Positions 7,301-57,835 of a stretch of 64,000 nucleotides of DNA are shown in pieces. Origin of the DNA: Clostridia bacterium (lineage in GTDB: Bacteria; Bacillota; Clostridia; TANB77; CAG-508); the NCBI GenBank assembly GCA_017430135.1, contig JAFRNM010000004.1:69499-133498 (forward strand), read 5' to 3'. Below the pieces are notes generated by a model. The model worked only from the letters and a program-made list of their open reading frames with translations, did not search any database and was not told the origin of the DNA. Position numbers and translations under genes: made by a program. Positions within the stretch are counted from its first letter, which is position 1, and every line of letters starts with the position of its first letter.

Positions 7301-7335
7301 AATTTTTTAGAAGCTAAAGAGGAAATTTTTGAAAA

Positions 7336-7408
7336 CGACTTTTTGGGACACCCTGACTTTTGGGGATGACTTTTTAAGAGTGTCCCAAAAAGTCATCCCC
7401 AAAAGTCG
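7336..7408. repeat. Post-genic palindromic element (family member A), related to the TTTTTGGGACACTCTTAAAA family, with interleaved inverted repeats.
   Basis: CGACTTTTTGGGACACCC / TGACTTTTGGGGATGAC / TTTTTAAGAGTGTCCCAAAAAGTC / ATCCCCAAAAGTCG. Segment 1 pairs with segment 3 and segment 2 with segment 4. It lies immediately 3' of the giant CDS stop. Confidence 0.6.
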
Positions 7409-9653: not shown

Positions 9654-10127
9654 ATGATGAAAAAACAAAGAGGCATTTATAGAAAAGTAAATACATTATT
9701 TAATAAAATAGATTTATTTGAACCAGTAATGAAAAATAATGTGTATGAAGAATTTGTAGTACCTAGTAATAATTTTTTAGATGAATCTCCAAATAGTATT
9801 AAAAGAAAATTCATACTTAAATGGCTCGAAATAACGGAAGAATTTATTAAACACAAAGATAATAATAAATTTTGTAAAATTGTAGGAATGATTGAGACTA
9901 ATGGAATAAGTAATTCCAGAATTATATTATTTTATGATGAAGAATATTATAATAATTTTTGGAAAAGAGAAAATTCGTATCAAACTTGGAAAAGATTAGA
10001 TTCAGAGGAATCATTAAAGCAAAGATTGAATATTCAAACCAATCTAAAAGAAATAGGCTTTAAAGAAACTTTAAATGATGATGATTTTAAATATGAAACA
10101 GAATTATGGTTTTATGGAGAACTATAG
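9654..10127 (+). CDS. Hypothetical small cytoplasmic protein, possibly an immunity-type protein.
   Basis: ORF with GGAGGA RBS (start at 9654 or 9657). No recognisable catalytic motifs. Follows the SUKH-like gene in tandem. Confidence 0.6.
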   Translation: MMKKQRGIYRKVNTLFNKIDLFEPVMKNNVYEEFVVPSNNFLDESPNSIKRKFILKWLEITEEFIKHKDNNKFCKIVGMIETNGISNSRIILFYDEEYYNNFWKRENSYQTWKRLDSEESLKQRLNIQTNLKEIGFKETLNDDDFKYETELWFYGEL

Positions 10128-14012: not shown

Positions 14013-14037
14013 ATCTCGGGTAAACCGGGATTTTTTT
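14013..14037 (+). terminator. Intrinsic terminator of spoIIE.
   Basis: TCTCGG-gtaaa-CCGGGA hairpin followed by TTTTTTT. Confidence 0.6.
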
Positions 14038-14043
14038 CGATAC

Positions 14044-14170
14044 TTTTTGGGACACTCTTAAAATTCCAGACTTTTTGGGACACTCTTAAAAGTCAAGGTT
14101 TGTTTAACCGAACCTTGACTTTTAAGAGTGTCCCAAAAAGTCTGGAATTTTAAGAGTGTCCCCAAAAGTT
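14044..14170. repeat. About 127 bp near-perfect palindrome carrying four copies of the 20-mer TTTTTGGGACACTCTTAAAA, two per arm (family member B).
   Basis: TTTTTGGGACACTCTTAAAA-TTCCAGAC-TTTTTGGGACACTCTTAAAA-GTCAAGGTT-tgtttaaccg-AACCTTGAC-TTTTAAGAGTGTCCCAAAAA-GTCTGGAA-TTTTAAGAGTGTCCCCAAAA. Confidence 0.8.
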
Positions 14171-14343
14171 TGATGTAATATAAATGTAATATAAATTTAA
14201 AATTTGAAACAGAAAATCCCTCAAAAGCCCTTCCGTAGCAAGATATTTAACGTTTTTTGCTTGCTGTAAAAATCATCTATTTACTTTTATAAAAATATTT
14301 TGTAGTATTTAGATAAGAAAATAATTTTTAAAGGAGAAAAATT

Positions 14344-21612: not shown

Positions 21613-21625
21613 TTTTATGACAACA

Positions 21626-21915
21626 CATCTCATAAATTGAATATTCGGCGACATAGCCATGCTGAAGCTGTTCGAGCATAAGCGAGTTACAGATTCAGTA
21701 CACTGCGTAGCAAGAAATTCAAGCGTAGCGAAGGATTTCTGGTCAGCGGAGCAGTGAGTGGTATACATTAGTTCATATCTCATAAATTGAATATTCGGCG
21801 ACATAGCCAAGTTGCTGAGGCTGTTGAGGCTTTGCCGATTACAGCGTCAGTATGCAGGGAGCGAAGCGAGTCGCAGGTAAGTATAGTTATTCATGAGTAC
21901 AAATTGGAGTTATTC
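21626..21915 (+). repeat. Two tandem degenerate ~150 bp units. Each begins with CATCTCATAAATTGAATATTCGGCGACATAGCCA, i.e. it carries the first 17-18 nt of the downstream tRNA-Cys.
   Basis: The direct repeat TATTCGGCGACATAGCCA occurs at 21643, 21792 and 21911; the last is the genuine tRNA-Cys 5' end. The intervening 120-nt bodies are diverged copies sharing GCTGARGCTGTT, GATTACAG and GCGAAG. Confidence 0.6.
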
Positions 21916-28433: not shown

Positions 28434-28451
28434 CCTAAAAATTTTTAAAAC

Positions 28452-28500
28452 TTTTTGGGACACTCTTAAAATTCAAGACTTTTTGGGACACTCTTAAAAA
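28452..28500. repeat. Two direct copies of TTTTTGGGACACTCTTAAAA (family member C, half element).
   Basis: CTTTTTGGGACACTCTTAAAATTCAAGACTTTTTGGGACACTCTTAAAAAG, immediately 3' of tex. Confidence 0.75.
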
Positions 28501-28596
28501 GTTTCTAAAACTTTTAATTGATAAATTAGCACAAAATACTTGCTTTTTATACATTTTACTAATATAATGTATAAAAATGTTCAGAGGTGATGCCAA

Positions 28597-30078: not shown

Positions 30079-30090
30079 TTGTGAAACTTA

Positions 30091-30176
30091 TTGGGACACC
30101 CTTGAATTTGGGGACACTCTTAAAAATCAAGGGTTTTCAAAAACCTTGATTTTTAAGAGTGTCCCCAAATTCAAGT
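30091..30176. repeat. Palindromic member D of the GGGACACTCTTAAAA family.
   Basis: TTGGGACACCCTTGAA-TTTGGGGACACTCTTAAAAATCAAGG-gttttcaaaaa-CCTTGATTTTTAAGAGTGTCCCCAAA-TTCAAG. Confidence 0.75.
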
Positions 30177-38019: not shown

Positions 38020-38048
38020 CCTTCCTAATTGAATTTATTTTTTATAAA

Positions 38049-38240
38049 AGTGCTAAAAATGATTTTGAAATCCGCGAAAGCGCCAAACGAACGAAGTGAG
38101 TGCGACCTGGAGCAACCCTCAGCAGAATTAGTGCAAACATACAATTTCTTATAGCGAAGAGCTATTAGAAATTGGCAGTTTGCAGTAATTTTAAGATTGA
38201 AGGTTGCGACGACAAGGATAAAAAATCATTATTTAGCACT
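38049..38240 (+). ncRNA. GC-rich structured repeat element, copy 1. Candidate structured sRNA or miniature inverted-repeat element.
   Basis: Conserved core CCGCGAAAGCGCCAAACGAACGAAGTGAGTGCGACCTGGAGCAACC ... GGTTGCGACGACAAGG. It is flanked by the copy-specific inverted repeat AGTGCTAAAAATGATTTT / AAAATCATTATTTAGCACT. A GNRA-type CGC-GAAA-GCG hairpin is present. Confidence 0.55.
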
Positions 38241-38359
38241 AAATAAAAACTAAATCCTACTATAATATATGAAAAAAATGTCAAAAAAGTGTATATATAA
38301 AATGGAATAATTATAAAAAAAAATCATATAAATAAAAGAGAAATATGGAGGGAATTAAA

Positions 38360-42643: not shown

Positions 42644-42653
42644 AGTTATAATA

Positions 42654-42815
42654 GTCAAACAATATTAGTTTTTATTCCTTGTCGTCGCAATTTTCTTTGT
42701 TGTACAGAAAAATTGCATAGCAATTTTTCGCACAACTAGTCTGTAAATTGCTCCAGGTCGCACTCACTTCGTTCGTTTGGCGCTTTCGCGGAATTAAAAA
42801 CTAATATTGTTTGAC
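42654..42815 (-). ncRNA. GC-rich structured repeat element, copy 2 (reverse orientation).
   Basis: Its reverse complement matches the core CCGCGAAAGCGCCAAACGAACGAAGTGAGTGCGACCTGGAGCAATTT...AAAATTGCGACGACAAGG. It is flanked by its own perfect inverted repeat GTCAAACAATATTAGTTTTTA / TAAAAACTAATATTGTTTGAC. Confidence 0.55.
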
Positions 42816-42846
42816 TTCATAATAATTTAAATAATAGGAGAATAAA

Positions 42847-45480: not shown

Positions 45481-45548
45481 GAACAATTTGGGGACACTTC
45501 TAAAAATGTACAAGCTTGTACATTTTTAGAAGTGTCCTCAAATTGTTC
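45481..45548. repeat. 68 bp near-perfect palindrome, family member E of the GGGACACT family (variant core GGGACACTTCTAAAAA).
   Basis: GAACAATTTGGGGACACTTCTAAAAATGTACAAG|CTTGTACATTTTTAGAAGTGTCCTCAAATTGTTC. It lies between the wHTH gene and the AAA ATPase gene. Confidence 0.8.
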
Positions 45549-47329: not shown

Positions 47330-47394
47330 TTTTTGGGACACTCCCCAAAAAACTGAAATAAAACCTGTCCTATAAGGCGACAGGTTTTATTTTT
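47330..47394 (+). terminator. Family member F (TTTTTGGGACACTCCCCAAAAAA) followed by an intrinsic terminator.
   Basis: CTTTTTGGGACACTCCCCAAAAAAC, then AAAACCTGTCC-tataagg-CGACAGGTTTTATTTTTG. Confidence 0.7.
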
Positions 47395-52157: not shown

Positions 52158-52166
52158 TAATAACTA

Positions 52167-52372
52167 GAATATAATAATTTCGAAGCCCGCGAAAGCGCCA
52201 GCCACTGCATACTGCCGCTGTAACAGGCATAGCCTTAACAGCGGACAGCAAAACGAACGAAGTGAGTGCGACCTGGAGCAACTTACAGACTAGTTGTGCG
52301 AAAAATTGCATCGCAATTTTTCTGTACAACATAGGAAGTTGCGACGACAAGGGCAAGAAATAATTATATTTC
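52167..52372 (+). ncRNA. GC-rich structured repeat element, copy 3, carrying an extra 35-nt hairpin insertion.
   Basis: CCGCGAAAGCGCCA-[GCCGCTGTaacaggcatagccttaACAGCGG]-AAACGAACGAAGTGAGTGCGACCTGGAGCAACTT...AAGTTGCGACGACAAGG. Flanking imperfect inverted repeat GAATATAATAATTTCG / GAAATAATTATATTTC. Confidence 0.55.
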
Positions 52373-52407
52373 AGTTATTTAAAAAAATTTGGAAAGGAAA
52401 AGAAAAT

Positions 52408-56181: not shown

Positions 56182-56207
56182 GTGTTTTAAGAAAATTATG
56201 AAAAGAG

Positions 56208-56870
56208 GTGCTTGAATTGAATAAACTTGATCCCAAGTTAAAAGATGCATTAGAATGGATTGGTTGCTTTATAATTGCAATAGTTGTAATATTTTTGGGT
56301 AGATTTTTTATTGGCACACCAACTATAGTAAAACAGATTTCTATGTACCCTACATTAGAACAAGACCAAAGATTATGGCTAAATAGATGGGGAAGAACTA
56401 TACATGCATTGCCAAAAAGAGGAGAAATAATAACTTTTGAAGAACCAAGTAAAATTAGTTATAGTGAAAGCGAAATAGATGTAAAAAATCCTGTGGCTAA
56501 GTTTTATGATAGAAAAGGCTGGGAATGGTTTGTGGATGAATTCTTAGAATTTGGTGATAAAAGAAGTTATATAAAAAGAGTTATTGCACTTCCAGGAGAA
56601 CATGTTAAAATCGAAAATGGAAAAGTTTATATAGATGGAAAAGAATTGCAAGAAGATTATTTACAACCAGGTGTTGTAACTGATGTTGTAGGAGTTGGAT
56701 TCTCAGATTTTGTTGTTCCAGAAAATTGCGTTTTTGCTATGGGAGATAACAGAAATCATAGCACAGATTGTAGGTCTTTTGGATGTATTCCATTAGAGAA
56801 GATTGAGAGCACAGTGGCATTTAGATTTTGGCCTTTTGATAAATTTGGAGAAATTGATGGAACTAAATAG
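56208..56870 (+). CDS. Type I signal peptidase (SipS/LepB family), paralogue 1.
   Basis: SMYPTLEQDQRLWLNRWG (Ser box) and GDNRNHSTDCRSFG motifs. Start probably the TTG at 56217 (MNKLD...). Confidence 0.85.
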   Translation: MLELNKLDPKLKDALEWIGCFIIAIVVIFLGRFFIGTPTIVKQISMYPTLEQDQRLWLNRWGRTIHALPKRGEIITFEEPSKISYSESEIDVKNPVAKFYDRKGWEWFVDEFLEFGDKRSYIKRVIALPGEHVKIENGKVYIDGKELQEDYLQPGVVTDVVGVGFSDFVVPENCVFAMGDNRNHSTDCRSFGCIPLEKIESTVAFRFWPFDKFGEIDGTK

Positions 56871-56957
56871 CAAATTGTTAAGTATCTTGAAAAGCCTAAA
56901 AGTCTTGCTAAAAACAAAAAAATATTATATAATTAGATAGAATTTTTATGAAAAGAG

Positions 56958-57620
56958 ATGATTTTATTGGATAAAATTGATCCAAAGATAAAAAATGTGC
57001 TAGAGTGGATTGGTTGCTTTATAATTGCAATAGTTTTAGCATTATTATTTAGATTTTTTATAGGTACTCCAACTGTTGTAAAACAAGTTTCAATGTATCC
57101 TACATTAGAACAGAACCAAAGACTATGGCTTAATAGATGGGGAAGAACTATACATGCATTGCCAAAAAGAGGAGAAATAATAACTTTTGAAGAACCAAGT
57201 AAAATCAGTTATAGTGAAAGCGAAATAGATGTAAAAAATCCTGTTGCTAAATTTTACGATAGAAAAGGCTGGGAATGGTTTATAGATGAATTCCTAGAAA
57301 AGGGAGACAAAAGAAGTTATATAAAAAGAGTTATTGCACTTCCAGGAGAACATGTTAAAATCGAAAATGGAAAAGTTTATATAGATGGAAAAGAATTGCA
57401 AGAAGATTATTTACAACCAGGGGTTGTGACTGATGTTGTAGGGGTTGGATTCTCGGATTTTGTTGTTCCAGAAAATTGTGTTTTTGCTATGGGAGACAAC
57501 AGAAATCATAGCACAGATTGTAGGTCTTTTGGATGTATTCCATTAGAGAAGATTGAGAGCACAGTGGCATTTAGATTTTGGCCTTTTGATAAATTTGGTG
57601 GAATTGATTCTTCTAAATAA
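56958..57620 (+). CDS. Type I signal peptidase, paralogue 2 (tandem duplicate, ~90% identical to paralogue 1).
   Basis: Same motifs as paralogue 1. Long stretches of identical nucleotides are shared with the upstream copy. Confidence 0.85.
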   Translation: MILLDKIDPKIKNVLEWIGCFIIAIVLALLFRFFIGTPTVVKQVSMYPTLEQNQRLWLNRWGRTIHALPKRGEIITFEEPSKISYSESEIDVKNPVAKFYDRKGWEWFIDEFLEKGDKRSYIKRVIALPGEHVKIENGKVYIDGKELQEDYLQPGVVTDVVGVGFSDFVVPENCVFAMGDNRNHSTDCRSFGCIPLEKIESTVAFRFWPFDKFGGIDSSK

Positions 57621-57835
57621 TTTTTATAGATTATCTAGTTATTTTAAAGATACAGGCTAAATATTATTATTTTTTGCAACTCCCAACTGCATAAGAAACC
57701 ATAATTCAAAATTTTTTGCTCTTCGCAAAAATTTTGAAATGCTTTCTAATTTGTCGGTCCCCCCGAATGTTGCCTAAAAATAATAATATTTAGCCCCAGT
57801 TGTAAAATAAAGTCTTATATAAAGAGGGATAAATA

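Follow-up and report, generated by a model that had tools for sequence, protein, structure and literature searches.

The three repeats carried by the window (the whole 64,000-nucleotide stretch of DNA analysed here) are probably members of a new, lineage-restricted family of MITE-like, non-coding and non-autonomous fold-back mobile elements. This reading is supported by the insertion of the cores together with their arms, by the presence of copies in both orientations, by a centre that is dispensable, by an arm type that is shared with other elements, and by arms in which the differences between copies are compensated. In their size (below ~500 bp), lack of coding capacity, terminal inverted repeats, dispersed copies and sites that are filled in some genomes and empty in others, the repeats display the features by which MITEs are recognised. 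On this reading they belong to a known class of mobile repeats, as a new family. A first-pass annotation of this DNA had proposed either a structured RNA or a MITE. The MITE half of that proposal is upheld by insertions at empty sites, whereas the ncRNA half is not, as no Rfam match was found and the core is not unusually stable.

Each copy consists of a GC-rich core, which stands out in a ~30% GC genome, between two AT-rich arms (Table 1). The 44-nt 5′ part of the core and a 14-nt 3′ box are identical across all three copies in the window, and the 30-mer AACGAACGAAGTGAGTGCGACCTGGAGCAA, the 3′ box TTGCGACGACAAGG and the word CCGCGAAAGCGCCA occur exactly three times each. In dinucleotide shuffles the expectation for core words was 0.00–0.10 per window, and a chance assemblage is thus ruled out. 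The copies lie where the first-pass annotation had placed them and, as it had reported, each is flanked by a near-perfect inverted repeat of its own. The inner helix of copy 1, GCAACC/GGTTGC, encloses an 88-nt hairpin that is found in no other copy. The hairpin insertion described for copy 3 is also present, with a length of 51 nt and not 35 nt. Its sequence is unique in the window, and it is missing in one ~98% identical locus of the same species (L025) and present in another (L029).

Table 1. Positions of the elements, their parts and related elements. Coordinates refer to the window unless a locus handle is given.
Feature	Position	Strand	Remarks
Copy 1 (c1), complete insertion, arms and core	38026..38257	+	by comparison with the sister-species empty site
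Copy 1 left arm, near-perfect portion	38050..38071	+	GTGCTAAAAATGATTTTGAAAT
Copy 1 core	38072..38217	+	CCGCGAAAGCG hairpin, GC-rich 5′ region, inner helix, 3′ box TTGCGACGACAAGG
Copy 1 right arm	38218..38239	+	ATAAAAAATCATTATTTAGCAC
Copy 2 (c2), element	42654..42815	-	115-nt core at 42677-42791; inserted segment by empty-site comparison, about 42645-42824
Copy 2 arms	42653-42674 / 42795-42816		22 nt, perfect
Copy 2 candidate target-site duplication	42645..42653 / 42816-42824		GTTATAATA / TTCATAATA; 7/9 identical, AT-rich context, uncertain
Copy 3 (c3), complete insertion, mraY/ftsW	52158..52386	+	by empty-site comparison; covariance model match 52162-52377
Copy 3 arms	52158-52186 and 52353-52379	+
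Copy 3 core	52187-52352	+
GC-rich hairpin nested in copy 3	52201..52251	+	51 nt, strain-polymorphic
Divergent copy	L007 3729-3818		loop GTAA for GAAA; 5′ core differs by indels
Third type	L044 3687-3817		inner helix GCGACCTT/AAGGTCGT in place of GCAATTT/AAATTGC
Mini type, 44 nt	L044 12449-12491; L027 8801-8844		retains CCGCGAAAGCRCCAAACGAGCC...TGCGATGRCAAGG only
Family B member	57655..57795	+	same architecture and arm type, 20-nt perfect arms GGCTAAATATTATTATTTTT, unrelated core
Other family B copies	L027 4190-4330; L041 10752-10877
Family C	L039 20358-20467		ftsW/murG spacer, site empty elsewhere
Arms-only 40-nt perfect AT-rich palindrome	L044 13526-13565		GAGCTAAATATAATAATTT joined to TAAATTATTATATTTAGCT; tsaD/next gene

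Syntenic 20-kb loci were collected through homologues of the RluB-like protein. Among strains of the same species (L029-L038) all three copies were present in every locus. In the sister species (L039-L043) the c1, c2 and c3 sites were all empty, and the arms were missing too. Nucleotide identity was 84% for L039/L040, 87% for L041/L042 and 75% for L043; L040 is another contig of the MAG RGIG8360, which carries copies elsewhere. The mraY-ftsW spacer that holds c3 measures 250 nt in the window and 21 or 15 nt in the sister species (15 nt in L041), the rluD-rluB spacer that holds c2 measures 203 nt as against 1 nt (L039), 63 nt or 21 nt (L043), and the spacer at the c1 site measures 325 nt as against 116 nt. 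At c1, CATCCTTTC is directly joined to TACTATAATATATGA in both L039 and L041 (the armless junction is also given as CATCCTTTC followed by TACTATAAT), and at c3 CAAATAGTATAA is directly joined to ATTTAGAAAGG in L039. Because the sister sites contain neither core nor arms, the two must have been inserted as one unit of 160–230 nt. Together, these comparisons show that insertion postdates the split from the sister species, and that the element enters short intergenic spacers in either orientation. They also correct the suggestion that copy 3 occupies the place of murD: mraY and ftsW are adjacent in the sister species, which indicates that murD was never between them in this clade.

At c1 the candidate target duplication is TCCTA (5 bp), which is present at both junctions, in flanks that are AT-rich and of low complexity. 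The candidate at c2 is given in Table 1, and at c3 no target-site duplication is demonstrable from the flanks. A pre-existing target palindrome, or an inverted duplication of the flank, was considered and rejected for c1-c3, since the empty sites of L039 and L041 are without arms. In L041 the rluD-rluB spacer (9940-10000) contains ATAATAGTCAAAATATAT, which matches the c2 flank/arm junction and may be the deletion footprint of a lost element. If this is so, c2 would predate the split between the window and L041, and its core would have been kept identical by conversion or constraint. In L043 (5545-5590) a palindrome formed by TATTAGCA and TGCTAAATAT (TTAGCA/TGCTAA) lies exactly at the c1 site, with arm-like halves joined at their outer ends.

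Copies are found inside operons at mraY-ftsW, at rluD-rluB and, in L016, at groES-groEL. The earlier observation of intergenic copies in both orientations extends to the wider set: relative to co-directional neighbours, six copies run in the sense direction and three in the opposite one, copy 2 being antisense to both of its neighbours, the rluD-like and rluB-like genes. Both c1 and the L027 copy lie 26–30 nt upstream of a divergent start codon. It is evident that the copies do not act as transcription terminators.

The AT-rich arms are ~22–45 nt long, reaching 35–45 nt, imperfectly, in c1 and c2, and comprise an outer G/C clamp (variants GAGC, GGC, GTGC and TAGC), an AT run and an inner TTTT/AAAA. 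Within a copy, left and right arms show a mean identity of 0.86 (inner 24 nt, bulge included). Between copies, the mean identity of left arms is 0.66 (0.48–0.83), compared with 0.56 ± 0.06 after shuffling. As judged from their sequences, the arms are diverged variants of one terminal-repeat type and not unrelated sequences. The first-pass annotation had described them as conserved in structure only, which is overstated; the compensated differences on which that description drew are nevertheless clear. In an alignment fitted to the structure, which favours pairing, the outer stem has 24 pairs, of which 19 are changed on both sides, and 96% of the cells are paired; even in the unaligned sequences the complementarity is obvious. 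This degree of pairing was reached by none of 500 shuffles, and no slid register came close.

One extra base is present in the 5′ arm of every copy, 3 nt from the core, and forms a constant bulge, and the 2 nt that adjoin the core are variable between copies yet complementary. The arm pairs are almost purely Watson–Crick, with three G.U cells, as in a DNA palindrome and not as is typical of RNA-only selection; the mismatches are too few for a bias between G.U and A.C to distinguish selection on RNA from selection on DNA. Arm likeness cuts across core type, in that c2 resembles L007b and L007a resembles L027f. Moreover, the arm tips are the least conserved part, and arms differ by 17–52% between copies with identical cores. 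Classical TIR transposons show their strongest conservation at the outermost bases, and the pattern seen here is not one that a simple cut-and-paste model predicts.

With a covariance model built from seven copies, a search of 15 sources (about 320 kb in total) recovered ten family members at unrelated intergenic sites and, beyond them, only generic AT-rich hairpins. The elements range from 95 to 230 bp and include divergent, third and mini types (Table 1). The inner hairpin takes four forms, one of which, in L027, is a perfect palindrome. The best conserved parts are the ends of the core, CCGCG-GNNA-GCG... and ...GCGAYRRCAAGG, with a variable centre that can be lost. Such a pattern fits a mobile element but not a functional RNA.

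In the M50-TsaD spacer the arms (AGATAATATATTGATTTTTAAAT / ATTAAAAATCAATTATATTATCT) are identical in L007 and in L044/L045/L046, and the cores they enclose are the 115-nt core in L007 (RGIG8360) and the 44-nt mini core in L044/L045/L046. The latter loci represent a sister of RGIG8360 (LysS 97% identical), and the site (L007a) is empty in the more distant L047 and L049. Hypermutability of the arms was rejected, as the arms of L007 and L044 are identical while their cores differ.

A scan with a core 18-mer over one genome per species (185,579 species) gave 24 matches, of which two are real. The other 22 are chance matches, 20 of them in unrelated, mostly GC-rich genomes and two in coding sequences of Clostridia MAGs. 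Both real matches come from a single contig of ‘Clostridia bacterium RGIG8360’, a MAG from buffalo rumen (L007, L016), and the copy number looks low, with two exact matches in the one complete MAG scanned. In JGI metagenomes a 20-mer matched two contigs from one sample only. The first (L025, L026, L028) derives from a strain 98–99% identical to the window, and the second (L027) holds an additional copy. Between the RluB-like proteins of the window and of Clostridium sp. CAG:440 the identity is 80%, which points to an uncultured low-GC Clostridia clade. Copy 2 gave no blastn match against plasmids and phages, and the core 18-mer was absent from the viral contigs scanned.

The core contains two small hairpins. 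The first, GCGAAAGC, is found in the window in the three elements only, and is represented by GCGTAAGC in the divergent copy. The conserved CGC-GAAA-GCG hairpin described earlier is indeed kept, and where the divergent copy has the loop GTAA this still conforms to GNRA/GNNA. For the second hairpin the main type has ACGAAGT and the divergent types have GCGAAGC or GCGTAGC; it fits GCGNAGC with a change of the closing pair from G-C to A-T. GCGNNAGC and GCGNAGC are known as ‘extraordinarily stable’ DNA mini-hairpin motifs (PMC13037366). With a GNRA loop as RNA and GCGNNAGC as DNA, the first hairpin would fit recognition on single-stranded DNA or on RNA alike. The same motifs are shared with the single-strand initiation sites of phage G4 and ssiA (PMC13037366), where they act in priming or as promoters on the single strands of phages or plasmids, whereas here they occur in repeats dispersed over the chromosome. 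Nothing points to a replication role for the elements.

No coding potential was found in the core. Indels between subfamilies break every frame, and the six core frames, joined as one query, had no match among 5.8 billion predicted proteins. Promoter-like and terminator-like sites between 37.0 and 53.5 kb were at chance level, with none marking the elements. The heptamer GTGAGTG was seen in main-type, third-type and family C cores as well as in a repeat upstream of tRNA-Cys (window 38086-38101, L044 3701-3711, L039 20374-20381 and window 21753-21760, respectively); this may be a coincidence or a shared signal.

Under the MITE-like reading, an enzyme encoded elsewhere would move the element in trans and would need the arms to be paired, either as a cruciform or as a single-stranded fold-back. 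The two strand-specific mini-hairpins (GCGNNAGC / NCGNAGN) and the conserved bulge may be the features recognised. The available DNA yielded no autonomous partner with matching ends, and a search of the related loci for a transposase flanked by the arm consensus found none. The identity of the cores could be due to recent spread together with recombination or gene conversion between copies, and such exchange would also explain the core swap and the cross-cutting likeness of the arms. Where an element is co-transcribed, its stem of 20–40 bp would give an extended RNA duplex that RNase III could plausibly cut, by analogy with Correia elements. Processing of this kind would be a side effect and not the reason for the element.

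A more speculative reading, which we consider unlikely, is that the repeats exemplify an undescribed class of structure-dependent mobile DNA, characterised by a generic AT-rich fold-back arm module, interchangeable GC-rich cores and a single-stranded DNA hairpin intermediate. In such an intermediate one arm could template or correct the other, which would explain why the arms are copy-specific yet self-complementary. The mini-hairpins (GCGNNAGC / GCGNAGC) and the fixed extrahelical base would then act as recognition signals, and the enzyme could be of the HUH type, primase-like or another single-strand enzyme.

It is distinctly unlikely that the repeats are functional structured RNAs, whether sRNA genes or cis-acting mRNA elements, with an active core, a stem kept by RNA folding and a spread that is only secondary. 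Several features are those that a structured RNA would be expected to show. Besides the compensated arm differences, the inner helix covaries between copies as had been claimed (GCAAyyy/rrrTTGC, or GCAAyyy/rrrUUGC as RNA), with both sides changed in three of nine pairs. Beside this helix lies a conserved tandem GA/GA step, followed by a G-C pair and a U.G pair that becomes U-A. The GNRA loop survives the change from GAAA to GUAA, the core is 100% identical though the arms differ, and folds of the whole element reach z = -8 to -9.5. These extreme energies, however, arise from the inverted repeats: the core alone, folded as RNA, gives z = -0.8 to -1.9 (main and divergent types), which is not unusually stable, and its reverse strand folds equally well. 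A GCGC/GUGC core helix predicted by RNAalifold is broken in the divergent copy, and in the mini subfamily the covarying helix is missing, as is most of the core. Also against an RNA are the presence of copies in both orientations to transcription, the chance-level frequency of promoter-like and terminator-like sites, the nearly pure Watson–Crick pairing of the arms, as in DNA palindromes, and the use of the same arms by unrelated cores. Rfam 15 at gathering thresholds called two tRNAs only in the whole window, and E-value scans of copies 1 and 2 returned microRNA-precursor hairpin noise only (E > 0.1).

Two specific RNA identities were rejected. A K-turn at the GA/GA step lacks the required C-stem pairing. 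Group II introns are marked by a 5′ GUGYG and a domain V-like hairpin, and GUGAGUGCGAC resembles a 5′ splice region; the core is unlike the resident group II intron of L055 (5′ GGTGCGTTCTGAG, domain V GAGCTGTATACGGTGAAAGTCGTACGTACAGTTC), and the Rfam intron models were silent on the window.

The arm type is not confined to the main family, here called A. The family B core (GCAACTCCCAACTGC...TGTCGGTCCCCCCGAATGTTGC) is unrelated to that of A. The L041 copy of family B is an insertion in the rluB-S1 spacer, a site at which the window carries no element, and comparison of the window and L027 copies reveals a compensated T-to-A change in the arms. Families B and C had no match in Rfam at gathering or E-value thresholds. 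The 40-nt arms-only palindrome of L044 is likewise an insertion, being absent in L007, L052, L049 and L054. One arm type is therefore common to the unrelated cores of the main family, B and C and to the arms-only palindrome, and on the likeness of their arm sequences families A, B and C and the arms-only unit would form one superfamily. Hairpin families D and E and GGGACAC palindromes occur in neighbouring spacers. The number of families in these spacers suggests that the intergenic DNA of the clade is being colonised by fold-back elements. Lineage-specific hairpin insertions were also observed in relatives at L047 15523-15756, L044 11505-11640 and L047 11515-11610; one of them has 59-nt perfect terminal repeats, and two are palindromic in the lysS-M50 spacer.

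A two-step origin was also considered, in which AT-rich palindromes would be primary and GC-rich core cassettes would integrate site-specifically at the hairpin apex, on the model of IS1397 in REP loops or of attC-like single-strand recombination. Such an origin would accommodate the arms-only palindrome, which shares the arm type and was likewise inserted, the identical arms with different cores at one site, the failure of arm relatedness to track core relatedness (c2/L007b; L007a/L027f), the variable but complementary 2 nt beside the core, and the nesting of hairpins in hairpins (the c3 insertion and the inner hairpins). It is nevertheless very unlikely. It needs two successive hits at each of c1, c2 and c3, since the sister species have neither arms nor core there, and arms-only units were rarer than cored ones in the DNA examined (1 against 14). 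In addition, it leaves the constant extra base of the 5′ arm unexplained, and two deletions would suffice to derive the mini core from the full one. The swap is accounted for just as well by recombination between copies.

That the repeats are IS remnants (solo or fused ends), or else chance palindromes or terminators without mobility of their own, is highly improbable: the best conserved parts do lie at the core ends beside the arms, like subterminal binding sites, and IS3-family and other transposases do occur in related loci, but no known IS end was matched, a longer ORF-bearing version was not found among the loci examined, exact-word scans of the 185,579 species genomes and of JGI metagenomes gave short ORF-less copies only, the copies are complete, bounded and represent three independent insertions within 14 kb, and the core motifs occur three times against an expectation of 0–0.1.

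The MITE-like family was compared with known small mobile repeats. In the Correia elements (CREE/NEMIS) of Neisseria the repeat sequence is much the same from copy to copy and a TA is duplicated, whereas here the arms differ between copies, the core ends and not the arm tips are best conserved, and no fixed duplication was seen; the two share no sequence similarity and belong to different phyla. One account of Correia elements describes small non-coding intergenic units that have a conserved core between terminal inverted repeats, are present or absent between close genomes and are inserted in operons and next to promoters, all of which are likenesses to the present family, and reports that their transcribed repeats pair and can be bound or cut by RNase III (PMC2649163).

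An identity with REP/REPIN sequences was rejected, as the pattern of conservation is reversed: REPINs have conserved arms and a variable centre, whereas the present elements have variable arms and conserved centre ends, and lack a GTAG-type foot. REPINs and REPs are mobilised by RAYTs and are short, non-autonomous hairpins with compensated changes, for which a single-stranded fold-back DNA substrate is presumed. The likeness lies in hairpin elements with compensated self-complementarity; such repeats are covered by a general review (PMC3184786). RUP, BOX, ERIC, bcr1 and the Rickettsia palindromic elements resemble the present family in size and in being non-coding and intergenic, and in having strong hairpins, a lineage-restricted occurrence and modular or deleted variants (reviews PMC2229807, PMC10969869). 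They have no sequence relation to the present family, which is distinguished by a core that is GC-rich within a 30% GC genome, by several unrelated cores on one arm type and by a constant one-base bulge. IS200/IS605-derived PATE have subterminal hairpins, no terminal inverted repeats and an insertion point 3′ of a fixed 4–5 nt target; this identity was rejected, as the present elements have long terminal inverted repeats and left-flank bases that differ between copies.

For annotation, these GC-rich islands are to be regarded as mobile repeats and not as ncRNA genes. They also break short-read assemblies, and Logan contigs end inside elements. Several fold-back families are colonising this clade of uncultured rumen Clostridia, a relative of Clostridium sp. 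CAG:440, and they land in essential operons (the dcw cluster, groES-groEL and rluD-rluB), where an RNA duplex of 20–40 bp could alter mRNA processing. If followed in complete genomes, the unusual traits of the elements, namely copy-specific self-complementary arms, DNA mini-hairpin motifs and the swap of cores at one fixed site, could shed light on the way in which they move.

Other repeats were observed in the window. Palindromic repeats built on TTTTGGGACACTCTTAAAA, with arms of up to 64 nt, lie at 7327-7407, 14036-14172, 28442-28502, 30086-30175, 45481-45548 and 47330-47355. They vary between relatives, the 47.33-kb unit being absent from L041 and a large copy being present upstream of lysS in L044. 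In the tRNA-Gly/tRNA-Cys region (21624-21915) the leader and 5′ part of tRNA-Cys (CATCTCATAAATTGAATATTCGGCGACATAGCCA) are repeated twice. After each repeat come ~110 nt that are richer in GC and contain GTGAGTGG and several GCGNAGC motifs; the two tRNAs are all that ARAGORN and Rfam call in this region. Between 1673 and 3985 there are at least nine imperfect 78-nt (26-codon) direct repeats, together with longer repeats spaced 1293 nt, and these seem to be part of a large repetitive coding region with a leucine-rich-repeat-like periodicity. Finally, positions 56196-56495 and 56946-57245 form two 300-nt direct repeats that are 88% identical, with starts 750 nt apart.
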